From the NCBI GenBank assembly GCA_943913625.1, contig CALTYW010000001.1:1-51017 (forward strand): a DNA stretch of 51,017 nucleotides, given 5' to 3'. The position numbers were made by a program, and so were the translations under genes. Below the pieces are notes generated by a model that had not been told where the DNA came from, searched no databases, and saw only the letters and a list, made by a program, of their open reading frames with translations. Below are positions 405 through 51,017 of the stretch, piece by piece. Numbering within the stretch: the stretch's first letter is position 1; every line of letters starts with the position of its first letter. Source of the stretch: an uncultured Campylobacter sp. Lineage in GTDB: Bacteria; Actinomycetota; Actinomycetes; Mycobacteriales; Mycobacteriaceae.

Positions 405-452
405 TGGAGCCGGCGACGAGAATCGAACTCGCACTCTCAGCTTGGGAAGCTG
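405..452 (-). repeat. Left att core (duplicated 3' half of tRNA-Gly)
   Basis: TGGAGCCGGCGACGAGAATCGAACTCGCACTCTCAGCTTGGGAAGCTG, identical to 50964-51011. Confidence 0.97.
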
Positions 453-13409: not shown

Positions 13410-13810
13410 ACCGCCACGACATCTTCTGGAAAGTCGCCATCCGAATCCGCGCCACCTACCGCGACCACGTCAAAGGCGAAGAAGCCTACGCGTACTCCGA
13501 AGACGCAGCCCGCGAACTGCAAGACGCGGGCCTGCTCGCCCCCGACCTACCGACCTTGCGAGACGACTACGACAGCATCAGCGTTCCAATTCGCCGCACC
13601 TCAATCAGGAACCGGGAGCACGACGATTTTCCCATCCTCTACGAAAACGAGGACAGCGTTCTCGTAGGTGTCACCGAGGGCGGGGAAGTCGAATTCTCGC
13701 TCGGCATGTGCGACGAAGTCTTCGTCACCCTCACCACCGACCAAGCCCGCCAATTCGCCCACACACTCCTGGGCGTAACCGACCACGCGGAAAGGAAAAC
13801 CAATGACTGA
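13406..13810 (+). CDS. Hypothetical protein
   Basis: Coupled ORF. Confidence 0.65.
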   Translation: MNRHDIFWKVAIRIRATYRDHVKGEEAYAYSEDAARELQDAGLLAPDLPTLRDDYDSISVPIRRTSIRNREHDDFPILYENEDSVLVGVTEGGEVEFSLGMCDEVFVTLTTDQARQFAHTLLGVTDHAERKTND

Positions 13811-17770: not shown

Positions 17771-17850
17771 GGAAGCGTCGCGCATGGTGCGCAACCCGTC
17801 TCGAACACGGGGGCCGCTAACCCGGAGGGGTTCGATTCCTCACGCTTCCG
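17771..17850 (+). tRNA. tRNA-Ser(CGA)
   Basis: GGAAGCG/CGCTTCC acceptor; CCCGT-CTCGAAC-ACGGG anticodon arm; long variable arm; GTTCGATTC. Confidence 0.85.
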
Positions 17851-17851
17851 C

Positions 17852-17935
17852 ACCCCGCTGGCGGAATTGGTAGACGCGACGTCCTCAAAAGGCGTTACCC
17901 GACCAGGTGTCCCGGTTCGAATCCGGGGCGGGGGA
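17852..17935 (+). tRNA. tRNA-Leu(CAA)
   Basis: TGGCGGAATTGGTAGACGC D arm; ACGTC-CTCAAAA-GGCGT; CCCGG-TTCGAAT-CCGGG; first acceptor pair mismatched. Confidence 0.85.
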
Positions 17936-18023
17936 CTGGGTCGCCCGGAGCCATAACTCGGGCCGACGGTGCGGCACACCGGCAGCCGCACAGCCCTAAC
18001 CCACCAACCACAAGGAGAACCGC

Positions 18024-39361: not shown

Positions 39362-40885
39362 ATGACCCAGATACTCGACTGGTCGCAGCGGTTCAGCTTC
39401 GGCAGCGCCCGCCCGACCAGCGCGATCAGCCTTATCTGCATCCACGTCACGGTCAACCGGCCTGGCACGCCTGCGGAGAACGTGGCGAACTACCAAATCC
39501 GCTCGCAGTCCGGTTCGTATCACGAGCTGGTTGACACCCGCCCGGTGGTGCTGATCGAGAACACGGACGACTGGCGCACCTGGTCGTCCGGCAACCGTGG
39601 CAACGATATCGGCTGGCACTTGTCGTTCGTCGTGATGGGCAACGAGACCCGCGAGCAGTGGCTTGCCCAGGACGCGATGCTGCGAGCCGGTGCGAAACGC
39701 TGCGCGATCCGTGCGAAGAAGTACGGCATCCCGGTCGTGAAGCTCACGGCTGCGGATCTGCGCGCCGGGAAGCGCGGCTTCTGTGGCCACCTGGAGACCG
39801 GCCAAGCCTGGGGCGGCACAGACCACGTAGACCCCGGCAAGCACTTCCCCTGGGACGTGTTTCTGCGCTACGTCCGCGAATACATGGGCCAAGCACCCGC
39901 CCCGGCTGCGAAGCCAGCGGCCCCGGCACCCAAGGTCACTAAGGCGGGCGAGCGCATGCTTGACTACCCGCGAGACCAGGTCAAGCAGGACACCGGCTAC
40001 AACTGCGGCCCCGCGAGTGTGCAGACCGCGATCCGCGCTGCCGGTGGGCCGCTTGTGTCGGAATCGACGCTGGCGCGGGAGCTGCGCACCTCCACCAGGG
40101 GCACGGACTACATCGGGCAGTTCCCCAAGGTGCTCGACAAGTACATCCCAGGCGCGAAGTACAAACACACCGACATCCCGAACGACCCGCCCACGAACTC
40201 GCAGAAAGAAAAATTCTGGGCTGATCTGACCGGCTCCATCAACGCCGGCCACGCCGTCGTGGTGAACATCTGCGCCCCGCCGTCGAACTACCCGCGTGCG
40301 GTGTGGCCGTCCACCATTTCCCCGAACTACAGGGGCGGCACCGTGTGGCACTACATCCTCGCCACCGGATACGCCGGCGAGGGCAAGAACCGCCGCGTCT
40401 GGATCGCAGATAGCGGTTTCGACCCGTACGGCTACTGGATCAGCTTTGACCAGCTCGCCACTCTCGTCCCACCCAAGGGCTACGCGTACAGCGTCGCCCA
40501 ACCAACCACAACCTCTAAGGAGACCCCAGTGTCCTCAACCCGCGTCATCCTCGGCGGCGAATCCGCAGCCGCCCTCCACGAAGCCAAGATCAGCTCCAAG
40601 AATGTCGAGGACGCCACTCGCCGCCTGGAGCGCACCGTCACCCTGATCGCAGACCAGCTGCTCGGCTGGCCGAAGAACGACAAGGGCGAATACCTCATTT
40701 CCGGCTGGGACTTCGATTCGATTCTCGCGTCCGCGAAGAAGAAGCTCGACGCCGGCAAGGGCGTGACCCTCGTCGAACAGATCGCGCTACTGCAAGACCA
40801 GAACAAGCACATCATCGAAGCGGTCAAGCAGTCCAACGACTCGGTCACGCACCTGATCGACGCTTACGAAGCAGGAGTGAAGTAG
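39362..40885 (+). CDS. Endolysin: amidase, C39-like peptidase and C-terminal domain
   Basis: ICIHVT, SYH, CGH..HVDPG; QDTGYNCGPAS..WHY..ADSG. Confidence 0.9.
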   Translation: MTQILDWSQRFSFGSARPTSAISLICIHVTVNRPGTPAENVANYQIRSQSGSYHELVDTRPVVLIENTDDWRTWSSGNRGNDIGWHLSFVVMGNETREQWLAQDAMLRAGAKRCAIRAKKYGIPVVKLTAADLRAGKRGFCGHLETGQAWGGTDHVDPGKHFPWDVFLRYVREYMGQAPAPAAKPAAPAPKVTKAGERMLDYPRDQVKQDTGYNCGPASVQTAIRAAGGPLVSESTLARELRTSTRGTDYIGQFPKVLDKYIPGAKYKHTDIPNDPPTNSQKEKFWADLTGSINAGHAVVVNICAPPSNYPRAVWPSTISPNYRGGTVWHYILATGYAGEGKNRRVWIADSGFDPYGYWISFDQLATLVPPKGYAYSVAQPTTTSKETPVSSTRVILGGESAAALHEAKISSKNVEDATRRLERTVTLIADQLLGWPKNDKGEYLISGWDFDSILASAKKKLDAGKGVTLVEQIALLQDQNKHIIEAVKQSNDSVTHLIDAYEAGVK

Positions 40886-40887
40886 CT

Positions 40888-41304
40888 ATGACCAACATCA
40901 AGAACGCCACCGTTACTGCCCAGGCCGTCGGCTCCGCGTACGACACGCAGCCGGGTTGGCTTCGCTACAAGGGCACGATCCTGATTATCCTGACCGGCTT
41001 GGTGTCGACGCTGTCGCAGCTCGCCGCGATGCCCGAGTGGGACGGCACCACCCTCGGTGTCGGCTTCACCATCGCCGCCACCGTCATCGGCGCGGCCATC
41101 AACCGTGGCACCAAGGACGGCATCACCCCGTCGATGGTCTCCAGGATCGCCCGCTTCGCCCCGGAGGACACCACCCCGGACTGCGAGCCGGAGCAGGCAC
41201 ACCCGCTGGAGTTCCCGGTGGTCGATCCTGACCTGGACTACGACGAGTACATCACCAACATGGCCACCCCGGAAACCGGACGCCACCGCGCCGGGGAGGT
41301 GTAG
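40888..41304 (+). CDS. Holin
   Basis: Two transmembrane segments; directly after the lysin. Confidence 0.7.
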   Translation: MTNIKNATVTAQAVGSAYDTQPGWLRYKGTILIILTGLVSTLSQLAAMPEWDGTTLGVGFTIAATVIGAAINRGTKDGITPSMVSRIARFAPEDTTPDCEPEQAHPLEFPVVDPDLDYDEYITNMATPETGRHRAGEV

Positions 41305-41309
41305 CCGTC

Positions 41310-41807
41310 GTGCCCATCGAGCACCTGCCGCCGCGTATGCGGCCCAAGGCCCGCCGCTTCCGCGACTGGTTCGCCACCGACAAAGGGATCATCCTGATCC
41401 TCGCGCTCGGGTTCTTCTGCCGCGCCCTGTCGTACCTGCTGGAAGCCCCGAGGCTGATGCAGCACGCGCTGGAGCTGCGCGCCGGGTGGATCAGCCCGCT
41501 CATTTGGACGTTTGGCACGGTGCTATTGGTGTGCGCGCTGCGGGTTGATAGTCGCCAGCTGGAGCGCGTGGCCTTGTCGTACGCCGTCGGCGTGTGCTCG
41601 CTGTGGACGGTGATGTACATTTTCACGCCCGCGGTGCCGATCCCAGGCCAGTGGTGGTGGCCGCTCGACTGGGTGCGCGTGGTGATTGAGTACTTCGGCA
41701 ACTTCCTGCTGCGGGGCAGCATGTACGCCACCGCAGGCGCTTTGGCGTGGTACACCGTGTGGCGCGACAGCCACGGCGGAATCAGAGTGAGGGGAGCACA
41801 TGACTGA
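41310..41807 (+). CDS. Multi-pass membrane protein (lysis cassette)
   Basis: About four hydrophobic segments. Confidence 0.65.
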   Translation: MPIEHLPPRMRPKARRFRDWFATDKGIILILALGFFCRALSYLLEAPRLMQHALELRAGWISPLIWTFGTVLLVCALRVDSRQLERVALSYAVGVCSLWTVMYIFTPAVPIPGQWWWPLDWVRVVIEYFGNFLLRGSMYATAGALAWYTVWRDSHGGIRVRGAHD

Positions 41808-42192
41808 CAAGCTCGACTTCGCAGCTATCGACAACCCGTGGCAAGCGCTCGTGTTCGTCGTGTGCTTCGGCTTCGCCGTACTCGCCTACGTCGCCATGAA
41901 CCGCACCAAAAAGGGCGCGGAGAAAAAGGTGGACGAGACAGAGCGAGTGGTCAAACAGGCTGCGGAGGTACCGGAACTTTGGGACACCGTTGATTTCCTC
42001 ACCAAGCAGGCGAAGACCATGTCGGAGGAACTGGCGCGCCAGGGCCGCAAGCTCGAAGCAATGGAACCGATTGTCAACGAGCGTTACCCGGCTGCGGTGA
42101 ACCACATCCGTGTGCTGCATAAGGCTCGCCCGGAGCTGGACGAGCTGCACCCGATTCCCGAGGTGCTGCGCGAAGACCTGCGGGTGCGGTAG
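41800..42192 (+). CDS. Membrane-anchored coiled-coil protein (lysis cassette)
   Basis: One transmembrane segment followed by a helical region. Confidence 0.65.
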   Translation: MTDKLDFAAIDNPWQALVFVVCFGFAVLAYVAMNRTKKGAEKKVDETERVVKQAAEVPELWDTVDFLTKQAKTMSEELARQGRKLEAMEPIVNERYPAAVNHIRVLHKARPELDELHPIPEVLREDLRVR

Positions 42193-42203
42193 CTGGAGGG
42201 CCG

Positions 42204-42212
42204 TGCTATATT
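42204..42212 (+). promoter_or_regulatory. Extended -10 promoter for the CRISPR-like RNA
   Basis: TGcTATATT a few nt upstream of repeat 1. Confidence 0.55.
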
Positions 42213-42216
42213 CAAG

Positions 42217-42342
42217 TTGTTCCCCGCGTGAGCGGGGGTGAGCCATTGTTCTTGTGCGATGTGCTCCTATTCCCTGCGTGAGCAGGGTTGAGCCGTTGTT
42301 TCTGTGCGGTGGCTCTTCTTCCCCGCGTAAGCGGGGTTTTTT
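42217..42342 (+). CRISPR. Mini-array of type I-E-like repeats with two short spacers and no cas genes
   Basis: TTGTTCCCCGCGTGAGCGGGGGTGAGCCA (42217-42245), CTATTCCCTGCGTGAGCAGGGTTGAGCCG (42267-42295), TTCTTCCCCGCGTAAGCGGGG+T6 (42316-42342); spacers of 21 and 20 nt. Confidence 0.8.
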
Positions 42343-42751
42343 ATTTCACCCACCGCTGCACCGTGGAGCGGGTGCGCCCCGTGGCCTGCGCGATCCGGTA
42401 GAGCGGAACCCCCGAATCGACCGCTGCTTTAGCCATTGCGTCGCGCCGTGCTTTGAGGTCAGCGAGCTGCTCTTCCACGGTAGTGATCTCCTCGTCCAGG
42501 GCGGTGATCTGCTGGAGCTGGGAGATGCCGCCGTTGTAGTGTTTCGTGGCCACCTCCCAAAAATCGACATCCTCGCGCTCGGCCATGCCCGACTGGTTGG
42601 CGCTGTCCCACCCCTCATCGTCGGCGGGCACCGCCACCCACTCGAGCATCTCCTGCGCAATCGCCAGAGTGTCGTAGTCGCCGGCATCCTCGCCCAGGGC
42701 GGGAATCACCACAGACTCCTCGTAGCTGTATGCGCTGCTGTAGAGCTGCAT
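42341..42751 (-). CDS. Acidic N-terminal domain fused to a C-terminal HTH (Aca-like candidate)
   Basis: GVPLYRIAQATGRTRSTVQRW; TAATG-coupled to the upstream gene. Confidence 0.75.
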   Translation of the reverse strand: MQLYSSAYSYEESVVIPALGEDAGDYDTLAIAQEMLEWVAVPADDEGWDSANQSGMAEREDVDFWEVATKHYNGGISQLQQITALDEEITTVEEQLADLKARRDAMAKAAVDSGVPLYRIAQATGRTRSTVQRWVK

Positions 42752-43176
42752 TATCGGGTGGCCTCCAGCTCTGCTGCGCGGCGTGCGGCGATCTTCGCGG
42801 CCTGCTCGCGGGCCTTGTCCTCCAGGCCGGCCAGGGCCACGTCGAAGACGCTGCCGTAGTCCTCGCCGAGGGTCTTGATGATGTCCACCATGCGACCGTC
42901 GATGCCGTAGTGCTCGCGCACCGCAGCTTTGGCTTCCTCTTCGATGGTGTAGAACGCGCCGGTGATGGCCTGGGCGAGGGTGCGGTCGATGGTTTCGATG
43001 GTCTGCATCCGGGCGCTGGCTTTGGCTCCGTGGCGGCCAGATTCACCGCGCCAGGTTTTGGCTTCGTCGCGGTCGGTGCGGGTCATGGAGATGTCGCTGG
43101 AGATGCTGGCGCGCATTGCGTCGTTGACGTAGGCGATGGTGAGGGTCTCGATGGTGGCGGTGTCGGTGATGAACAT
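42751..43176 (-). CDS. Helical hypothetical protein (anti-defence candidate)
   Basis: GAAAGGA SD before MFITDT; first gene after its own promoter. Confidence 0.7.
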   Translation of the reverse strand: MFITDTATIETLTIAYVNDAMRASISSDISMTRTDRDEAKTWRGESGRHGAKASARMQTIETIDRTLAQAITGAFYTIEEEAKAAVREHYGIDGRMVDIIKTLGEDYGSVFDVALAGLEDKAREQAAKIAARRAAELEATR

Positions 43177-43216
43177 TTGCTCGTCCTTTCGGGTGGTGTT
43201 CTTTGCTTGTGTCACC

Positions 43217-43251
43217 AGTATGACGCACTGCGTCGTACAACGCAATGCGTC
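43217..43251 (-). promoter_or_regulatory. Promoter overlapped by two palindromic operators
   Basis: TTGCGT-17-CATACT on the minus strand; GACGCAcTGCGTC (43222-43234) and ACGCAaTGCGT (43240-43250). Confidence 0.7.
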
Positions 43252-43341
43252 GCCTTTACGGGGGTGATAGCCGGGGGTAGGGTAGGACAACTGTGCAGGT
43301 CACGTCCAATGCGGAAACCCCCAACGAATAGGAGCACCCGC

Positions 43342-44418
43342 ATGGCCGACATCGTGCCCACCTACAAAGACCTCGAAACAAAACTCGTCCTACGCTGGGT
43401 CGATACCGAAGACGTCATGGCCACGCAGCGCGCCACCATCGAGGTCACACCCGAAGCCGCATATTTGGAGCTGCCGCGTGGCCTGCGCGGAGAGAAAGGT
43501 GAACCCGGCGACCCCGGCCCCGGCTTCTGGTTCCGTGACCTGATTACCGATAAGCGCCAGCTGCCGCAGAACCTGCGCGACGTGGATCGAGGCAGCGCGT
43601 TCCCCGACACGAAGTCCAAGAGCCTGTGGGTGTGGGACGGGCGTGACTACTTCGAAATCCCGAATTTCATTGGGCTTCGTGGCGAGCCGGGTAAGACGCC
43701 GCGTGTGCAGATCGGCTCTGTGGTGCCGGGTGGCGACGCCAAAGTGTCGGTCAACCAGGCCGCCAGCACGGAGGACACGTTCGTCCTGGACTTCGTGCTG
43801 CCCCAAGGCCCGGTCGGCCCGCAGGGTAAGCAGGGCGAGACGGGCGAGGCGTCGAACGTGTCTAGCTCGCCGGATGTGGACGTGTCGCGTCCGCCGAAGC
43901 CGGGTGAAGCGCTGACGTGGAACGGCTCGAAGTGGGCACCGCGCAACATGCTGTCCCCGGTGGGGCCGTGGATGATGGGTCCGAACGACTTCAATTCATT
44001 CGAGCAGAAGCTGATCGGTTCCAGCGACAAAAAGAACCATCTGATCGGCTCGATCACGGTGCCCGGCTTGCCGTTCGACTGGCGGCCCGTGATTTTGGGC
44101 GGCCACTTGCAGTGGTGGTCTGACCTTGGCATCCAGCTCAACGTGGACGTGCGTGTCGGCAACGCCCAAAAGGGCGACATCGTCGGCCACGGCGTCGGGG
44201 TGCGCAACGCCCGCCAGCTCCAGTACGTCAGCCTGCACCCGTGGTCGACCGGCAGCGTCTCCCCAGGCTCCACCTACGGCGTGGTCAAGGCCAACACGGC
44301 CACCACGATCTACGTCGTCCTGGAAAAGGTGTACGGGTCTGCGGGTGCGTGGGAGTTCACCCGCCAGAACGCCGGCCTGACGTTCATGGCCATGCCGGTG
44401 AACACCCAGTACGCGTAG
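43342..44418 (+). CDS. Minor tail protein with collagen-like repeats
   Basis: AGGAG SD; GEKGEPGDPG and GPVGPQGKQGETG. Confidence 0.8.
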   Translation: MADIVPTYKDLETKLVLRWVDTEDVMATQRATIEVTPEAAYLELPRGLRGEKGEPGDPGPGFWFRDLITDKRQLPQNLRDVDRGSAFPDTKSKSLWVWDGRDYFEIPNFIGLRGEPGKTPRVQIGSVVPGGDAKVSVNQAASTEDTFVLDFVLPQGPVGPQGKQGETGEASNVSSSPDVDVSRPPKPGEALTWNGSKWAPRNMLSPVGPWMMGPNDFNSFEQKLIGSSDKKNHLIGSITVPGLPFDWRPVILGGHLQWWSDLGIQLNVDVRVGNAQKGDIVGHGVGVRNARQLQYVSLHPWSTGSVSPGSTYGVVKANTATTIYVVLEKVYGSAGAWEFTRQNAGLTFMAMPVNTQYA

Positions 44419-44425
44419 GGGGTGC

Positions 44426-46603
44426 GTGGTGGCTGATCGTGATTTCCGCTCGTCGGAGGAACTCGCCGGCGTCACTGTCTCCAGTACGCAGGCATTGCCT
44501 GAGCCGCAGGACGGGGAGGTCAACCCGTACAACTCGTTGACGCGTGCGGATACGTTCGGGATTCGTCCTGACCTGTATTTCGAGCTGGCCCAGGCGATGC
44601 CGCAGGCACCGACGGTGGACATGCTGATTCGTCGTGCCCGTGAAGCGCTTGCCCAGTCCGAGGACAGCCTGAAGCAGTCGGATCAGGCCCGTCGGGACAG
44701 CGCTAAGGCGCTCGAAGATTCGGACGCGGCGCTGAAAGACGCTGCGGTCGCGAGGAAGCAGGCCAGGGCGAGCCTGGATCAGTCGACGGCGGCGATTGCT
44801 GAATCGAATTCGGCTGTGGCGCAGGCACGGCAGGCCGTGACGACGTCGAACGAGTACCTCCAGGTCTCCAAGGACGCTTTGGCGGACGCGGGGCGAGCAC
44901 GAGCGCGGGCCGATTCCGCGCTCGCGGAGGGTGCGAAGCAGCGCACCGTGGTTGAGCGGTCGCTGGCTGAATCTGCACAGGCGTTGGAGCGCGCCGGGGC
45001 AGCGGTGCGCAAGTCGGACGATTCCATCTCGCTGGCGCGCTCGGCGCTGGTCGACGCTGGGGCAGCTCGAGCTAAGGCTGAATCGGCGTTGTCAGAGAGC
45101 GCGGCGCAGCGGGTGCTGGTGGAGCAGTCGCTGGGCGAATCTGCTCGCGCTTTGGCGCGGGCGGGGGATTCACTGTCGCGGTCGGATCGGGCGTTGTCGG
45201 TGGCGGGTACTGCCCTGGCGGACGCGAGTACGGCGCGTACTGATGCTGCGTCGGCGTTGTCGAATTCGGGCGCTGCCCTGGATAAGTCGGATTCGTCGGT
45301 GGCGACTGCGAACGCGGCGAACAGTAGGGCGTCGTCGGCTGATCTGACGTCGGAAGCTGGGCGCAAGGTGGCGCTGGAATCGCTGGCTAAGGCGTCGCAG
45401 GCGAACACAAACGCCATCGCGGCTACGAATACCGCGCTGCGGGCCACGAATGATTCTGTGGAAGCCCTGCGTCGGGCGAATGCGGCGAACAGCCGCGCTA
45501 TAGAAGCGAACTCGGCGGCGATTTCTGCCACAAATCAGGCGGTGGCGTCGCACGGGGTGGCGATCCAGGCGACGAATGATGCTGTGTCGGCGCTGTCGGC
45601 GTCGTTGGCTGCGAACTCGCGGGCGATTGCTGCTGTGTCGGAAGCGTCGTCGGCGAACAGCAGGGCTATCTCCGCGAACAGCACCGCAATCTCGGCCACA
45701 AATACTGCCGTGTCCGCGAACAGTACCGCCATTGGTGCCACGAATAAGGCTGTGGCGGCTGTGACCGCGTCGTCGGCGGCGAACGCGAACGCTATTTCGG
45801 CGTTGTCGGATGCGTCGGCGGCGAACAGTAGGGCGATCAGGGCCACGAATTCTGCTGTTGCGGCGACGAATACCGCCGTGTCCGCGAACTCGAACGCTAT
45901 CTCCGCCACGAATAAGGCGCTGACCGCGACGAATAGCGCGGTGTCTGCCCTGGAGGTGGCGAACGGGGCGAACAGTCGAGCCATCGCCGCCACCAACCGG
46001 GCCGTGGCCGCTGCGAACGCCGCGTCAGCTGCGAACACGGACGCGATCCGCGCCACCAACCGGGCTACTTACGCGCTTACCGAAGCTATCGGCTTGGTGC
46101 ACCTGAAAAACTACGGTGCCTGGGGCATGAGCAGTGGTTACTCGCTGAACAAGGGCACAACCTACATTGATTTTGACTACCTCAAGGGGGCGTCGGGTTG
46201 TGGGTCGAACGCGATTTCCGCTGGCGGGAAGATCATCAACGGGATCCGCTTCGACGACGCTGGCCAGTGGGAAGTGAACCTACGCATGTACATCCCGTCA
46301 GCGCCAAGCAGTCTCTCGATGGAGAATGTGAAGGTGCATCTCGCGCACTGCCGAGGTAGCGAGTTTGTCGACCGGGCCACGTTCGCGACGAACGAGATGT
46401 ATGGGCACTCGATTGGTTTGCACGCGATGTTCCGAGTGCAGCCAGGTGATTACGCCTACGTGTTCGTGGATTCGAGCGCGAATCGTGGTTCGACGTTGCT
46501 GACACGCACGTCCAGGTGGGGGGACGATTACAACGAGTTGGCGGTGCGCCAGGTGTCTCGCGTTGGACAACCTGATATTCCGACAGACTACCTGCGACTC
46601 TAG
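44426..46603 (+). CDS. Tail fibre-like protein with long Ala/Ser/Asn coiled-coil stalk and beta-rich tip
   Basis: Repeating ANSxAIxATNxAV pattern. Confidence 0.75.
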   Translation: MVADRDFRSSEELAGVTVSSTQALPEPQDGEVNPYNSLTRADTFGIRPDLYFELAQAMPQAPTVDMLIRRAREALAQSEDSLKQSDQARRDSAKALEDSDAALKDAAVARKQARASLDQSTAAIAESNSAVAQARQAVTTSNEYLQVSKDALADAGRARARADSALAEGAKQRTVVERSLAESAQALERAGAAVRKSDDSISLARSALVDAGAARAKAESALSESAAQRVLVEQSLGESARALARAGDSLSRSDRALSVAGTALADASTARTDAASALSNSGAALDKSDSSVATANAANSRASSADLTSEAGRKVALESLAKASQANTNAIAATNTALRATNDSVEALRRANAANSRAIEANSAAISATNQAVASHGVAIQATNDAVSALSASLAANSRAIAAVSEASSANSRAISANSTAISATNTAVSANSTAIGATNKAVAAVTASSAANANAISALSDASAANSRAIRATNSAVAATNTAVSANSNAISATNKALTATNSAVSALEVANGANSRAIAATNRAVAAANAASAANTDAIRATNRATYALTEAIGLVHLKNYGAWGMSSGYSLNKGTTYIDFDYLKGASGCGSNAISAGGKIINGIRFDDAGQWEVNLRMYIPSAPSSLSMENVKVHLAHCRGSEFVDRATFATNEMYGHSIGLHAMFRVQPGDYAYVFVDSSANRGSTLLTRTSRWGDDYNELAVRQVSRVGQPDIPTDYLRL

Positions 46604-46615
46604 GAGGTAGCGCGC

Positions 46616-48451
46616 ATGCAGATGCAGTTCACGACGGTGAAGCGGGCGGTCAAGGCCGTGCACGTAGACGGCTACGACAATGACCGCGCCCCCGAGGTCG
46701 AACAGGTGCAAGGCTCGGTCACGTTTTACCCGATGATGGGTGAGGGTGACAGTGTCCAGGTGCAGACCGTGGAGGGGCCAGTCACGGTGGTGCTCACCCC
46801 GATTACGGTGCGGATTGCGGACGGCATGGTGATGCACCGTGGCGGTATCGGGGTGCAGCTTTTCGCCGGTGGCAAGGGGTCAGAGCCGTCGCTGATTCGG
46901 TGGCGGGCGCGGTTCACGAACCTCCAATCTGACGGCGTGCCAATCCAGCTGCGGGACGTCGTTTTCGACGCGGTGCCCGGTGGGGAAGTCGACCTCACCA
47001 CCGCAGCACCCCTCGCGAACGCGCCGGAGCCTATCGTGCGCGGCCCGCAAGGTGTGTCGATGGATTCGCTGACGGTGGAGGGCGGCGACCTCGTTGTGTG
47101 GGGCCGCTCCGAATCCGGCAAGCAGGTGCTGTCGCGGATCAAGATGTCGCAGATCACCGAACCTGCGGCACAAGCAGCAGCGGACGACACACTCGCGAAG
47201 CTCAAGAAGACGCTGGACGCCAAGGCGGACAAGGACGAGACCGCGCAGGCACTGGGAACCAAGGCCAATCAGGAAGCCGTGACCACCGCGCTGGCGCTTA
47301 AGGCCGACAAGACCGCGCTAACAACTGGGTTGTCGGGCAAGGCGGACACGTCGCACAAGCACACCTCGGCGGACGTAACCGACGCGAAGAGCACGCCGAC
47401 GGCGGGCGTGCTCGTCAAGTACGACACGGGCGGATTGTTCACCGTCGGCACCCCCAAGGTCGACGCGCACCCGACGACGAAGAAGTACGTCGAAGAAGCA
47501 CTGACGAAGAAAGCTGACAAACAGCACTCTCACCCGATCAGCGACGTCACCGGGCTACAGGCCGCGCTCGACGTCAAAGCGGCGAACGCCCACAAGCACG
47601 GACAGGGCGACATCATCGGCCTGGACACGACCTTGGCGGGCAAGGCCGATAAAACGCACAGCCACGGCTGGGATGGGATCACCGGCAAACCCACCACGTT
47701 CACCCCTGCTGCGCACAGCCACACCATCGGCAACGTGACAGGGCTACAGTCCGCCCTTGACGACAAACTCCCCAAGACGCACTTCAAGGTCGATTCCACA
47801 CTGTACGACCCGCAGCGCGTCGTAATCGACGGTTTTACAGCGTCCGATGCGCGTACTGAGGTCGCCGGGATTCTTAAGACTGCGGGGTTGACAAGCATCG
47901 GTAAAACCGGTGTGTGGTCTATCGCGGTTGGTGTTGACGCGGTTGCTGAGCATGCGCTTGGGGTGGCTGTCGGCGCGTGGTCGGTGGCTCTTGGTGAGCA
48001 GGTGGTCGCGCTTGGCTCTCTAGCGGTCGCTAGTGCCCAGTGTGCGGTCTCTATCGGCCCGTCAGCAATCGCAATGGGTACCTGGTCGCTTGCGCTGGGC
48101 GGGGCAGCCAAGGTCGGGAAAGGCGCGACGAATTCCGTCGCTCTCGGCCCCAATGCCGTCGTGAACACCCCCAACACGATTCAACTTGGGGCATCCGGTG
48201 CCACCGTCAACGTCTCCGGCGATTTGACGATCCCTGATCCGAAGCAAGGCCGTAGTGCTGCGACGAAGCATTATGTCGATACTCGCAAAGTCCAGATCAG
48301 CCAGGTCAATGGCTTGGCGGCGGAGCTGGGGGCGCGCCCGAACGCGTGGATCATCGAAACCGCTGCGGAGCTGAAGGCGACGGAGGCGAAGGCGCGGCCC
48401 GGCGACATTATTTTTGTGGACGAAACCGGCGAGAAATGGAAGGTGAGCTAA
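46616..48451 (+). CDS. Tail fibre with H-x-H repeats and YadA-head-like repeats
   Basis: HSHPISDVTGLQAALD repeats; SIAVG/SVALG/AVSIG repeats; AATKHYVD. Confidence 0.8.
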   Translation: MQMQFTTVKRAVKAVHVDGYDNDRAPEVEQVQGSVTFYPMMGEGDSVQVQTVEGPVTVVLTPITVRIADGMVMHRGGIGVQLFAGGKGSEPSLIRWRARFTNLQSDGVPIQLRDVVFDAVPGGEVDLTTAAPLANAPEPIVRGPQGVSMDSLTVEGGDLVVWGRSESGKQVLSRIKMSQITEPAAQAAADDTLAKLKKTLDAKADKDETAQALGTKANQEAVTTALALKADKTALTTGLSGKADTSHKHTSADVTDAKSTPTAGVLVKYDTGGLFTVGTPKVDAHPTTKKYVEEALTKKADKQHSHPISDVTGLQAALDVKAANAHKHGQGDIIGLDTTLAGKADKTHSHGWDGITGKPTTFTPAAHSHTIGNVTGLQSALDDKLPKTHFKVDSTLYDPQRVVIDGFTASDARTEVAGILKTAGLTSIGKTGVWSIAVGVDAVAEHALGVAVGAWSVALGEQVVALGSLAVASAQCAVSIGPSAIAMGTWSLALGGAAKVGKGATNSVALGPNAVVNTPNTIQLGASGATVNVSGDLTIPDPKQGRSAATKHYVDTRKVQISQVNGLAAELGARPNAWIIETAAELKATEAKARPGDIIFVDETGEKWKVS

Positions 48452-49141
48452 ATGGCGCTGAAACGGATTAGACGCGGGGCGCGATTGCACCCGGCACAGG
48501 TGAAGCCCGGTAGCGGGTGGGCAAACGTGACCGCCCCAGGGAGCACGAACCCTTACTTCATCGGGGCGGCTGACCAGCGTCTTACGGTGACCGCCTCGAA
48601 TTGTGACGGGGTGCGTATCTACGACTGGGGTAAATCCCCGAACCTGTACACGGAGTCGACGCCGGGTTCCACGCTGCATAGTGCCGTGGCGCTCGTGTCC
48701 AACATGGGCTTCGGCCCCGTGGTGCGTGTACTCAATCCGACTGAAAACACGGAGGTAACTATCATGTCTGAACCGCTCCCCCCCCCCTGCTCAATAGCAG
48801 GTTTGCGCGCCTGGGTAGGTGGTTGCCGTGGCGCTGAGGAAACTGAACTCGGTGCAGGAAGCGTCCGGCACCGGGTGGCGCGCCCACAAGCAGGGCCGCA
48901 TCGTCGTACTGATCTGCCAGGATTTGCCCATCGGGACGAGCGAGTTGCTGCCGGACGGGTTCAGGCCAATGGGCTACGTCGAGGTTGCAGCCAAGGGCAA
49001 CGACCCCGCCACAAACAACTGTGGTCTAGCGGTGCGGTGGAACGGCAGAATGACCGTCTACGGGGCGGGCAAGTCCACCACGGTGAACGCGGTTGTAACG
49101 TTCGTGGTCGGCGGCTGACCCCGCAGGGGGTGGGGGCGTAA
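48452..49141 (+). CDS. MAL-cassette gene A1 (domain ends at the C10 tract, then reads through B1 out of frame)
   Basis: MALKRI...SEPLPPPC; stop TAA overlaps the ATG at 49141. Confidence 0.7.
   Translation: MALKRIRRGARLHPAQVKPGSGWANVTAPGSTNPYFIGAADQRLTVTASNCDGVRIYDWGKSPNLYTESTPGSTLHSAVALVSNMGFGPVVRVLNPTENTEVTIMSEPLPPPCSIAGLRAWVGGCRGAEETELGAGSVRHRVARPQAGPHRRTDLPGFAHRDERVAAGRVQANGLRRGCSQGQRPRHKQLWSSGAVERQNDRLRGGQVHHGERGCNVRGRRLTPQGVGA
48778..48787 (+). repeat. C10 homopolymer tract 1
   Basis: ctCCCCCCCCCCtgc. Confidence 0.9.
48828..49118 (+). CDS. MAL-cassette gene B1, receptor-binding head-like domain
   Basis: (M)ALRKL...KQGRIVVL...LPDGFRP. Confidence 0.7.
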   Translation: MALRKLNSVQEASGTGWRAHKQGRIVVLICQDLPIGTSELLPDGFRPMGYVEVAAKGNDPATNNCGLAVRWNGRMTVYGAGKSTTVNAVVTFVVGG

Positions 49142-49494
49142 TGGCACTACGTCTTATTGGCCGTAGCCCGGTGCAGCATGTGTTGGAGGGCTACGCGAAC
49201 CCCGGCGATCCATACATCACGTTCCCGCACGCCAAAAACATCAACCCCACCCCGAACCGGTACCAGGTACGCCCCGGTACTGGCATGTGGCTGGTTACGC
49301 TCACTGCGAGCGACCCTGAAGCGTCGATCCGTCTGGCGATCCAAAACGGTGTCGAGATTTGGGGTAAGGGCAGCGTTTCGGGGTGCGACTACATCACAAA
49401 CCCGACGTATTGGGTGCTGTGTAGTCCGGGTGCGGTTAAGCAAGCAACCCGGTATGTATTGACCCTCACGAAAACAGCCCCCCCCCCTGCGTAA
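49141..49494 (+). CDS. MAL-cassette gene A2 (ends at the C10 tract)
   Basis: MALRLI...KTAPPPA*. Confidence 0.7.
   Translation: MALRLIGRSPVQHVLEGYANPGDPYITFPHAKNINPTPNRYQVRPGTGMWLVTLTASDPEASIRLAIQNGVEIWGKGSVSGCDYITNPTYWVLCSPGAVKQATRYVLTLTKTAPPPA
49478..49487 (+). repeat. C10 homopolymer tract 2
   Basis: gCCCCCCCCCCtgc. Confidence 0.9.
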
Positions 49495-49521
49495 TTGCAA
49501 GATTCTGGGGTGGTGGTCGCG

Positions 49522-49830
49522 GTGGCGCTAAGGAAGATCGGCGGCAGGGACAGTGTGCTGTGCCGTACCGGCGACACACCCTCATACCGCAATTGGGCCA
49601 CCTGGGACTTACCCACAGATCACCCCACGGTGACGGTGCCCAAACCGGAGATGGTCAAAGCGCAACGTGGGAAGTGGCGCTGCGAAGTTTTGGCAGGCCG
49701 CGCTTTGACCTACGTAGATGGGAAGAATGTGGGAGAAAACGGTCCCGGCGTGTACGTGTACGAGGGGGAGCTGGCGGTCTACAACCAGCGCAGCGAACCC
49801 GTCACCATGATTCTCACCCGGTTGGCCTGA
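49522..49830 (+). CDS. MAL-cassette gene B2
   Basis: (M)ALRKIGG...VTMILTRLA. Confidence 0.7.
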   Translation: MALRKIGGRDSVLCRTGDTPSYRNWATWDLPTDHPTVTVPKPEMVKAQRGKWRCEVLAGRALTYVDGKNVGENGPGVYVYEGELAVYNQRSEPVTMILTRLA

Positions 49831-49851
49831 CCCTCGTAGGGGGTGAGGGCC

Positions 49852-50124
49852 GTGGCGCTTAGAAAGATCAGCACGACCACGACCGCGAACGGCGCAGGCT
49901 ACTACGCGGTGAAACAAGGCCGGGTGGTCATTGTCGAAATCGTCAATTGGGATGGCACATCCATCTCTCTGCCGTGGCCACCCGCATACCGAGCACGCGG
50001 AACGCTATTCCAGACGGGCAGCACAGCGCCCGCCAGGTGCAACGCGAACACGACTGGGCAACTCGACGCTTACGACATGACCGGCAACGGTGCGCTGTGG
50101 GGCCAGGTCACCTACATCACCTAA
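49852..50124 (+). CDS. MAL-cassette gene C, related to B1
   Basis: (M)ALRKIS...KQGRVVIV...QVTYIT. Confidence 0.7.
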   Translation: MALRKISTTTTANGAGYYAVKQGRVVIVEIVNWDGTSISLPWPPAYRARGTLFQTGSTAPARCNANTTGQLDAYDMTGNGALWGQVTYIT

Positions 50125-50182
50125 ACATCCCCTGACCGCGACAGGTTGGGGGACAACCGGCGGGCCGGGTGAGACTGCGCGC

Positions 50183-50836
50183 ATGAACGTTGAGCAGATC
50201 ACCCAAGCCCTCCGCGAAGTGTCGGACGCGGACTTCGAGCACATCTTCGACCAAATGATCCTGATCCGCCAGGAGCGCCAGGCCCGCCCACAGGTCGAAG
50301 CGGCCAAGGTGGACATGGCCACCCAGCTCTGGGAGGAACACCCAAACCTAAAACCGGAATACCAGGACACCGACCCTGAACCTGCCGAGACCATCGACTC
50401 CCTGGTGGCGAAAATTCCCCCATGGAAGAAACCCTCCGGCCCGGCAACCGCGTACCCGCCAGCATCCTTGGTGCAGCACCAGGGCAAGCTGTGGCGCAAC
50501 CGCACGCGGGGCATGAACGAATCTGAGCCTGGCACGAAGTGGTCGCGGTGGGAGGACGTCACCCGCGATTTCCTCCGTCCCGAGCCGGTGCACGATGGCA
50601 ACGCCCCGGAGCAGGAATCGCCGACGTCAGAGAAACCCGCACCGACGCCGGAGTCGGAGGAACCGCAGAACGTCACCCCGGCCCCAACCGTGGCGGCCTG
50701 GACGCCTGGTGAGACCCTCATTAAGGGCACCACCCGCACCTATAAGGGCAAGCTGTATGTCTGTCAGCGATTCCACACGACCAAGGCAGGGTTGGAGCCT
50801 GATGCTGGTACCGGGTACTGGCAGCTGCTCGTGTAA
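50183..50836 (+). CDS. Tail-associated protein with carbohydrate-binding-like modules
   Basis: AYPPASLVQHQGKLW..EPG; WTPG..TYKGKLYVC..H..EP..W. Confidence 0.65.
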   Translation: MNVEQITQALREVSDADFEHIFDQMILIRQERQARPQVEAAKVDMATQLWEEHPNLKPEYQDTDPEPAETIDSLVAKIPPWKKPSGPATAYPPASLVQHQGKLWRNRTRGMNESEPGTKWSRWEDVTRDFLRPEPVHDGNAPEQESPTSEKPAPTPESEEPQNVTPAPTVAAWTPGETLIKGTTRTYKGKLYVCQRFHTTKAGLEPDAGTGYWQLLV

Positions 50837-50853
50837 TTCCCTCGATGTGATTC

Positions 50854-50888
50854 CACCCCCGTTCGACATGGTTGTCGGCGGGGGTTTA
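50854..50888 (+). terminator. Putative terminator hairpin
   Basis: ACCCCCG..CGACA-tggt-TGTCG.CGGGGGT followed by TT. Confidence 0.55.
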
Positions 50889-50907
50889 GCCTGTGCGCGT
50901 CTGGCAC

Positions 50908-50929
50908 GTCCTGACCTTTGTCCTGACCT
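50908..50929 (+). promoter_or_regulatory. Integrase arm-type sites
   Basis: GTCCTGACCTTTGTCCTGACCT. Confidence 0.75.
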
Positions 50930-50963
50930 GTTCCGCACTGCCCGGCGTTTCCGCTGGTTATTG

Positions 50964-51017
50964 TGGAGCCGGCGACGAGAATCGAACTCGCACTCTCAGC
51001 TTGGGAAGCTGATGTTC
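50964..51017 (-). tRNA. tRNA-Gly(CCC) 3' portion and right att core (5' end beyond the window)
   Basis: Reverse complement ...TCAGC-TTCCCAA-GCTGA..GCGAGTTCGATTCTCGTCGCCGGCTCCA. Confidence 0.93.

Follow-up and report, generated by a model that had tools for sequence, protein, structure and literature searches.

A prophage-borne mini-array of Corynebacterium as a probable type I-E Cracr array with homology to the cas-regulating CreR of its host

The 51,017 nucleotides (nt) of contig CALTYW010000001.1 (assembly GCA_943913625.1), which were analysed in full and are called the window in the following, represent a prophage of a Corynebacterium. [quoted passage not shown] This assignment is carried by the anatomy of the element, the type I-E system of the host, the homology to the CreR of this host, the match to a site upstream of cas3 that is flanked by a protospacer-adjacent motif (PAM), and the co-variation of guides and targets across species, all of which were established in silico. 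Such elements were named Cracr by Liu et al. (10.1101/2024.10.29.618823), whose main text gives 219 candidates, including 20 I-E arrays, from three phyla, one of them Actinomycetota. Hence, the mechanism is already in print, where it was first described only recently, and the present element would add a comparative-genomics case of a phage hijacking CRISPR autoregulation in Corynebacterium.

Anatomy of the phage array

The array is situated in a gap of 148 nt between the convergent open reading frames (ORFs) 41800-42192 on the plus strand and 42341-42751 on the minus strand, and it starts 24 nt after the stop codon of the former (Table 1). Tandem Repeats Finder calls a single array at 42220-42336 with a period of 50 nt, 2.4 copies and 80% matches. 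A repeat search identified a hairpin unit of 21 nt three times (42217-42237, 42267-42287 and 42316-42336), with identities of 100, 81 and 90% and a spacing of 50 and 49 nt. An 18-nt hairpin motif, permitting up to three mismatches, has three occurrences in the 51-kb window, all of them at the array, compared to 0.15 expected; three or more occurrences were not reached in any of 100 shuffles. Each copy contains a GC hairpin of 6 bp (42222-42237, 42272-42287 and 42321-42336).

The hairpin of pseudo-repeat 1 is identical to the hairpin of the host array repeat. Pseudo-repeat 2 shows the double change CCCTGC/GCAGGG, by which a C-G pair becomes a U-A pair and the stem is kept; this compensatory change had already been noticed in an earlier reading of the DNA, which was made without database searches (referred to as the sequence-only reading). 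The same reading proposed that repeat 3 doubles as a terminator, which agrees with our analysis, because within 41900-42900 pseudo-repeat 3 together with its T6 is the sole call of a terminator-like site. Its T-run shares bases with the stop codon of ORF 42341-42751, which runs convergently, and the hairpin would also serve as the 3' hairpin of the second RNA. The two spacers have the reported lengths of 21 and 20 nt and are indeed alike. In summary of these features, the element differs from a canonical CRISPR array: its repeats are only 81-90% alike, and its spacers are short and mutually homologous, compared to 32-33 nt in the host array. An Rfam scan of 41500-43000 reached no gathering score and matched no CRISPR repeat family; the top match to the array was anti-hemB with 27.2 bits against a threshold of 49.5, driven by the hairpins and the terminator.

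The host type I-E system and its CreR-like mini-array

Contig C55 of the same assembly carries eight co-directional, tightly packed genes in the order cas3, cse1, cse2, cas7e, cas5e, cas6e, cas1 and cas2, all with strong Pfam matches. The associated array comprises at least 42 repeats with a period of 61 nt and spacers of 32-33 nt; it points away from cas3 and is cut off by the end of the contig. The sequence-only reading had described three degenerate I-E-like repeats in the phage and had suggested a comparison with I-E repeats of the host. Both points can now be answered, since the three hairpin units exist, the I-E system on C55 is complete and its repeat is near-identical to those of the phage, with 23 of 25 identical positions in pseudo-repeat 1 and 22 of 25 in pseudo-repeat 2. 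The phage repeats also have the orientation of the host repeat, with the part corresponding to the 5' handle located 3' of the hairpin.

The 287-nt region between the divergent cas3 and array (C55:11695-11981) holds a mini-array of the host itself (C55:11846-11910), in which a hairpin, the handle ATGAGCCC, a pseudo-spacer of 20 nt, a linker of 5 nt and a second hairpin follow each other. According to the alignment, its pseudo-spacer is homologous to both phage pseudo-spacers. This host guide has its target 78 nt away on the other strand, at an AAC-flanked site (C55:11792-11773) that ends approximately 80 nt upstream of the cas3 start codon. Guide and target match at positions 1-5, 7-11, 13-15 and 17 and mismatch at positions 6 and 12. 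For type I systems, it has been described that every sixth spacer position does not pair (Shmakov et al., 2023; PMC10120712).

The host unit is located inside the CRISPR-cas locus, its guide partly matches a PAM-flanked site near the putative cas promoter, and it is without a toxin gene. It is therefore taken to be a CreR, in agreement with the published description (10.1101/2023.03.10.532045). As in the main text of that report, a short pseudo-spacer lies between two pseudo-repeats, of which the first keeps the 5' handle and the second keeps the hairpin, and a PAM-flanked site in the neighbourhood of the cas promoter is matched over approximately 15 nt. There are differences as well. The CreR of Salmonella has 15 consecutive matching nt, an AAG PAM and a target approximately 140 bp upstream of casA, whereas the match of the C55 unit is broken by positions 6 and 12, AAC predominates as the PAM, and the unit is situated between the divergent cas3 and array. 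The phage element itself is not a CreR but would be a derivative of it on a mobile element.

Mini-arrays of this type are not restricted to the present host. A blastn search with the 287-nt intergenic region gave matches in six of 320 other genomes of the genus, with the mini-array as the best-conserved part, and a geometry-based pattern matched in 18 of these 320 genomes (reversed control, 0). Fourteen of the 18 are mini-arrays adjoining a divergent cas3 and four are short spacers inside ordinary arrays; including the host genome (G000), 15 CreR-like loci were thus found in 321 genomes, while the I-E Cas6e is present in 72 of the 320 others. The loci homologous to C55:11695-11981 are L036, L061-L066 and L068-L086. 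Besides G000, 12 of the 14 other loci have an AAC- or AAG-flanked site on the opposite strand that partly matches the local guide, which in these 12 is at a distance of 80-143 nt; in the remaining two (G512 and G548) no target above threshold was found.

Guides and targets co-vary, namely at position 2 in G469 and at positions 8-9 in G538, G589 and G514, and wholly different guides with matching targets occur in G460, G313, G466, G413, G339, G516 and G590. G000 and C. urinipleomorphum have one common guide, and within positions 1-15 their targets differ at positions 6 and 12 only. Generally, target mismatches in the genus fall preferentially at these two positions, which makes them a clean natural read-out of the 6-nt periodicity of Cascade. 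In a cross table, each guide fits its own target or that of its sister best. A CreR-type guide with a co-varying target is accordingly common next to cas3 in Corynebacterium I-E loci. When the phage units were aligned with seven host CreR units, the handle core TGAGCC was invariant and the downstream hairpin was paired in 54 of 54 cells.

In seven of seven loci examined, the target lies approximately 75-85 nt upstream of a conserved cas3 start, which has a ribosome-binding site and leaves no room for a separate gene. A TAnnnT hexamer follows 18-26 nt beyond the target in all seven loci aligned by eye. This arrangement suggests a cas3 promoter on which Cascade would be placed on or beside the -35 region. 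A by-eye candidate for this promoter, TTGCAC-N17-TAATCT, was dropped because it fails the consensus scan.

Some additional observations concern the host array and its surroundings. Host spacer 15 matches a second prophage (C2:38628-38660) at 29 of 33 positions, the flanks of which form no clean AAC or AAG PAM; this site may be an escaped protospacer. Spacers 26 and 28 (C55:13543-13576 and 13665-13698) are near-identical variants of one protospacer, and spacers 7 and 19 overlap on opposite strands, which in both pairs looks like repeated or primed acquisition from one target. Moreover, contig C167 (1-2411) carries a fragment of a second I-E locus with cas5, cas6e, cas1 and cas2 (71-82% amino acid identity to C55, GC content 58%). 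It is closest to the Corynebacterium genomes G320 and G302 (Cas6e 92%) and could represent a second system or a contaminating strain.

The phage guides and the site upstream of cas3

The sequence-only reading had further suggested searching for spacer matches at the host cas promoter next to a PAM, and a PAM-flanked match exists upstream of cas3. Of the 15 scored positions in the AAC-flanked target of the host CreR (C55:11792-11773, minus strand), guide 1 matches 14, which form one uninterrupted stretch beginning at the PAM end, compared to 14 of 15 and a run of 13 for the host's own guide. On both strands of the 2.27-Mb assembly this is the best non-self match of guide 1, and it is followed by the host CreR itself, whose flank is handle sequence instead of a PAM. 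The matches were evaluated on the 30 AA-flanked sites of the cas3-array intergenic region, with the mini-array masked; none of 20000 shuffled guides reached the observed score, and the same result was obtained for the host guide and for guide 2.

Compared with the guide of the host CreR, guide 1 is identical at 14 of the first 15 positions, with position 6 alone being different. Its drift is confined to position 6 and the 3' end and never affects a pairing position, and one pairing is gained at position 16. Guide 2 is identical to the host guide at 13 of 15 positions and differs at 7 and 14. The 3' ends of all guides (GGCTC or GTGCTC, the latter in pseudo-spacer 1) resemble relics of the repeat's 5' end (GTGCTC), hence the true guide part should have approximately 15-16 nt. 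The distance from the handle to the next hairpin is 25-27 nt in the mini-arrays and 37-38 nt in the host array, and the difference of approximately 12 nt corresponds to two Cas7 steps. Taken together, the match of guide 1, the homology to the host CreR and the complete I-E system support the earlier suggestion that guides of the array could turn the host Cascade into a repressor of the cas genes.

With regard to the definition of Cracr arrays, the element is located on a mobile element outside the cas locus, and its units are similar to the host repeat and flank short pseudo-spacers. Guide 1 shows partial complementarity to a PAM-flanked site at what is probably the host cas promoter. At least nine PAM-proximal positions are common with the host CreR guide, although neither guide would pass if nine consecutive positions were required, due to the differences at positions 6 and 7, respectively.

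Proposed mechanism and comparison with known systems

Based on these findings, we infer the following sequence of events, from transcription and processing to repression. The plus strand would be transcribed from the weak extended -10 motif (42204-42212) or, alternatively, by read-through from the upstream lysis genes, and the transcript would end at hairpin 3 and its T6. Host Cas6e would cut 3' of hairpins 1 and 2, which would result in two RNAs of approximately 50 nt, each composed of an 8-nt handle, a spacer and linker of together approximately 26 nt, and a hairpin at the 3' end. The stretch between handle and hairpin being approximately 12 nt shorter than in a normal CRISPR RNA (crRNA), a Cascade with two fewer Cas7 subunits is predicted. 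RNA 1 would guide this short Cascade to C55:11792-11773, approximately 80 nt upstream of cas3, by pairing at positions 1-5, 7-11 and 13-16. Such a short pairing should permit binding without cleavage by Cas3, and the complex bound on or beside the promoter of the cas3-to-cas2 row would repress it, thereby tightening the autorepression by the host CreR. Furthermore, both RNAs would compete with real crRNAs for Cas proteins.

The closest published example is the I-E Cracr array on a Salmonella prophage, which according to the main text of Liu et al. comprises three pseudo-repeats as well as two pseudo-spacers, one of 24 and the other of 21 nt. Its processing is Cas-dependent, it lowered the casA mRNA and restored plaquing of T7, and pseudo-spacer 1 was required (Liu et al.). 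Like this Salmonella enterica array, the present element is prophage-borne outside the cas locus, has three repeat-like units of which the third is degenerate, and two short pseudo-spacers (here 21 and 20 nt) with homology to guides of host CreRs and with partial, discontinuous complementarity to the cas promoter. In contrast, the host is here a Corynebacterium (Actinomycetota); the target precedes cas3, which opens the cas3-to-cas2 row, instead of casA; and the third repeat doubles as a terminator. Moreover, both guides resemble one host CreR, whereas the main text of Liu et al. states that different variants are always targeted by the guides within an array. Copies of regulatory mini-arrays on prophages have also been described for I-B and I-F1 systems (Shmakov et al., 2023; PMC10120712). 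The present element shares with them the phage copy of a host mini-array, the conserved seed, the variable stem sequence and the mismatches at sixth positions, as far as the main text of that study describes them.

Corynebacterium is not named in the main texts of 10.1101/2024.10.29.618823, 10.1101/2023.03.10.532045 and PMC10120712, the supplementary tables of which may list the element or its kin, and a full-text literature search gave no paper linking Corynebacterium with these terms. Compared to the published cases, the distinguishing features are the actinobacterial host, the target at a cas3-first row, the position of the CreR between cas3 and the array, the lysogen that retains its CreR, and the two guides from one CreR type. 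Applications of native I-E systems in corynebacteria, such as genome editing or phage resistance in industrial and clinical strains, should consider both autorepression by the host and possible prophage silencers.

Points against the assignment

It must be mentioned that several points weigh against the interpretation as a Cracr array. The sequence-only reading had located an extended -10 just upstream, and the motif TGCTATATT is indeed present there; however, it was found by eye, and no promoter was called at the array by a sigma-70 consensus scan. Nor did the consensus scan call one for cas3, where the -10 candidates were also found by eye only. The minimum free energy fold of the whole 130-nt RNA (z -8.0) pairs hairpin 1 with hairpin 3 and does not form three local hairpins. 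Covariation support for the hairpins is weak, as there is a single compensatory pair, a value also reached in 57 of 500 shuffles. As homologs of the host guide, the phage guides have partly inherited their match to the target, which is therefore not independent evidence; more informative are the positions at which drift has occurred.

Guide 2 matches the host site at 13 of 15 positions, with mismatches at 7 and 14 and a PAM-end run of only 5. Position 7 is a seed position of the I-E Cascade, and guide 2 may be inactive on this host. A better target of guide 2 was found neither in the 320 other genomes of the genus nor in the I-E locus of the G320/G302 type. The pattern of its ideal target occurs in three of the 320 genomes versus four for the reversed control, in no case with an AA PAM or with hairpins close by. 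The G320 and G302 loci have their own, unrelated CreR-target pair, and neither phage guide matches it.

None of the 42 host spacers matches the window prophage beyond 13-14 nt, so that no current self-targeting needs suppressing. The prophage mini-arrays in the main text of Shmakov et al. (PMC10120712) occur only with I-F1 hosts lacking their own mini-array, whereas the present lysogen keeps its own. As this host CreR has the same target, the added effect of the phage array is uncertain. Finally, the assembly is a draft, and the presence of the prophage and the cas locus in one cell rests on binning and on overlaps of 55 nt at contig ends.

A far-reaching version of the proposed mechanism would turn the coexistence with the host CreR into its central feature. 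We regard it as possible, though rather doubtful, that the array acts as a super-repressor in a lysogen with its own CreR, in which guide 1 out-competes the CreR and guide 2 is tuned to a target variant, with C at position 7 and G at position 14, in strains not yet sequenced. For guide 1, this idea is based on the pairing one position further than the host guide (run of 14 versus 13). If it is true, the single promoter of all eight cas genes including cas1-cas2 would be locked down, and interference as well as the acquisition of spacers against the prophage would both be blocked. It would then run counter to the reported restriction of prophage regulatory arrays to hosts without a mini-array of their own, and it would extend the mechanism to Actinomycetota with a cas3-first operon.

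Searches for relatives

The 153-nt intergenic sequence matches phage records over only 25 nt of its terminator part; these 41 records, which include 40 from Klebsiella phages, have E values of approximately 0.1 and are taken as chance. A 10-kb megablast against phage records gave nothing, the handle-and-guide pattern gave no stretch in viral contigs, and the two flanking proteins gave no confirmed relative in viral contigs. The scan of genome contigs with the pattern resulted in 38 stretches, 37 of which are without I-E hairpins and were judged chance; the one real match is in C. urinipleomorphum. A single stretch from metagenome contigs lies in coding-like sequence without a hairpin and was likewise taken as chance. 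At the family level, the pattern matched in two of 300 other genomes, once inside an ordinary array and once without a hairpin close by, and both were rejected. A search of sequencing runs for 41300-43300 listed no run.

Alternative explanations

The sequence-only reading had also considered an RNA decoy. Accordingly, the repeat-like RNAs could only titrate Cas6e, Cas5 or Cas7 from crRNAs without any targeting of DNA, as in Racr, which are said to be RNA anti-CRISPRs made of solitary repeat units without a targeted guide. The three Cas6e-type hairpins, the two handles that keep the invariant TGAGCC core and the position-7 mismatch of guide 2 to its sole candidate target are consistent with a decoy. 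A repeat mimic on a mobile element that captures Cas proteins is indeed what Racr and the present element would have in common (Racr is cited in 10.1101/2024.10.29.618823), and Liu et al. propose in their main text that the Salmonella array likewise competes for Cas proteins. However, guide 1 has a specific PAM-flanked match in the cas3 promoter region, unlike Racr, and it keeps every target-pairing position of the host CreR and even gains position 16, none of which a pure decoy needs. Moreover, CreR-armed systems compensate for simple sequestration, as stated in the main text of Liu et al. We therefore consider a decoy alone as unlikely; decoy activity is compatible with repression by a Cracr array and probably forms part of the effect.

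Somewhat less likely still is a non-functional passenger, i.e. a piece, captured by recombination and duplicated, of a Corynebacterium cas3-array intergenic region that serves at most as terminator between convergent genes. Such an origin would fit the canonical terminator that hairpin 3 forms between the convergent ORFs. It would also fit the restriction of the array to this one prophage, because the pattern search in the 320 genomes and the searches in phage and viral contig collections found no second one, and the related prophage on contig C2 has no I-E-like mini-array. Nevertheless, both downstream hairpins and both handles are intact despite the divergence, hairpin 2 has its compensatory pair, and the orientation, the seed of guide 1 and the geometry (units of 48-50 nt, as in 14 host CreR units) are all kept. 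Hairpin 1 of the phage equals that of the array repeat and differs from pseudo-repeat 1 of the host CreR, hence the array is no plain copy of the locus in this host.

Two further explanations have little to recommend them. The host mini-array might repress a toxin gene next to cas3, as in CreTA, and the phage copy would then mimic the antidote and silence the toxin while Cascade is disabled otherwise; the main text of Liu et al. describes CracrIF RNAs with a silencing effect on creT, and an unexplained two-gene cassette with a helix-turn-helix protein adjoins the array, but no toxin candidate was seen and there is no room for a separate gene between target and cas3 in seven of seven loci, which makes this very improbable. 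Least probable of all is a genuine mini-CRISPR array of a virus, by which Cas proteins of the host would be directed against competitor phages, since, even though such arrays exist in viruses (cited in the main text of PMC10120712), spacers of 20-21 nt differ from the 32-33 nt of the host and have homology with one another and with the host CreR, and phage records and viral contigs share with the element no more than the terminator part and no handle-and-guide pattern.

Prophage context

The window is the whole contig C1 of the 215-contig, 77%-complete assembly and represents a prophage integrated in tRNA-Gly. Its ends overlap the contigs C41 and C27 by 55 nt, and its genes encode an integrase (604-1821), terminase, portal, tape measure, amidase/C39 lysin, holin and minor tail proteins. 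The absence of cas genes from the prophage, as stated by the sequence-only reading, was found for the type I-E proteins, since tblastn with the eight host I-E Cas proteins gave no homolog on the prophage contig; other cas types were not searched. The ORF upstream of the array has weak homologs (36-37% identity) in two of 120 genomes of the genus, with no repeat-like units close by. On the other side, the convergent two-gene cassette encodes a 136-amino acid protein with a Pfam match to HTH_23 (E 6.8e-6). The cassette could be an acr-aca-like pair, and such pairs often adjoin Cracr genes; as anti-CRISPR candidates, its proteins gave nothing in PHROGs, PADLOC, PDB sequences and the ESM Atlas.

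Table 1. Features of the array and of the surrounding prophage (window positions).
Feature	Position	Strand	Description
attL	405-452		Direct repeat of 48 bp; attR and the tRNA-Gly(ccc) 3' end, which lies terminally on contig C27, have the identical sequence
Upstream ORF	41800-42192	+	130 amino acids, without family match; last plus-strand gene after endolysin (39362-40885) and holin-like genes
Possible extended -10 TGCTATATT	42204-42212	+	By-eye candidate promoter, 4 nt 5' of pseudo-repeat 1
Pseudo-repeat 1	42216-42245	+	6-nt lead, hairpin CCCCGC-GTGA-GCGGGG (42222-42237), 8-nt 5'-handle equivalent GTGAGCCA (42238-42245)
Pseudo-spacer 1 (guide 1)	42246-42266	+	21 nt; guide part is positions 1-16
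Pseudo-repeat 2	42267-42295	+	Hairpin (42272-42287), handle TTGAGCCG (42288-42295)
Pseudo-spacer 2 (guide 2)	42296-42315	+	20 nt; homologous to pseudo-spacer 1 and host CreR guide, except positions 7 and 14
Pseudo-repeat 3	42316-42342	+	Hairpin (42321-42336) and T6 forming an intrinsic terminator; without handle part
Convergent two-gene cassette	42341-43290	-	179-amino acid ORF (141 from an internal Met), without family; 136-amino acid protein with C-terminal helix-turn-helix
attR	50964-51011		Second copy of the 48-bp core

The second prophage on contig C2 (47.9 kb) is approximately 77-85% identical to large parts of the window prophage and has the same att core of 47 bp at its end. This may mean that tRNA-Gly serves both phages, or else that the bin is a mixture of strains. 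Two adjacent phage tRNA genes, Ser(cga) and Leu(caa), are found at 17771-17936 of the window, and C2 has two tRNA-Arg genes at the equivalent place. Furthermore, tail-fibre-like genes (minor tail protein phrog_4120, phage tail repeat and CBM_5_12) follow the lysis cassette at 43330-51017 and adjoin attR, which is an unusual position apart from the main tail module at 31-39 kb.

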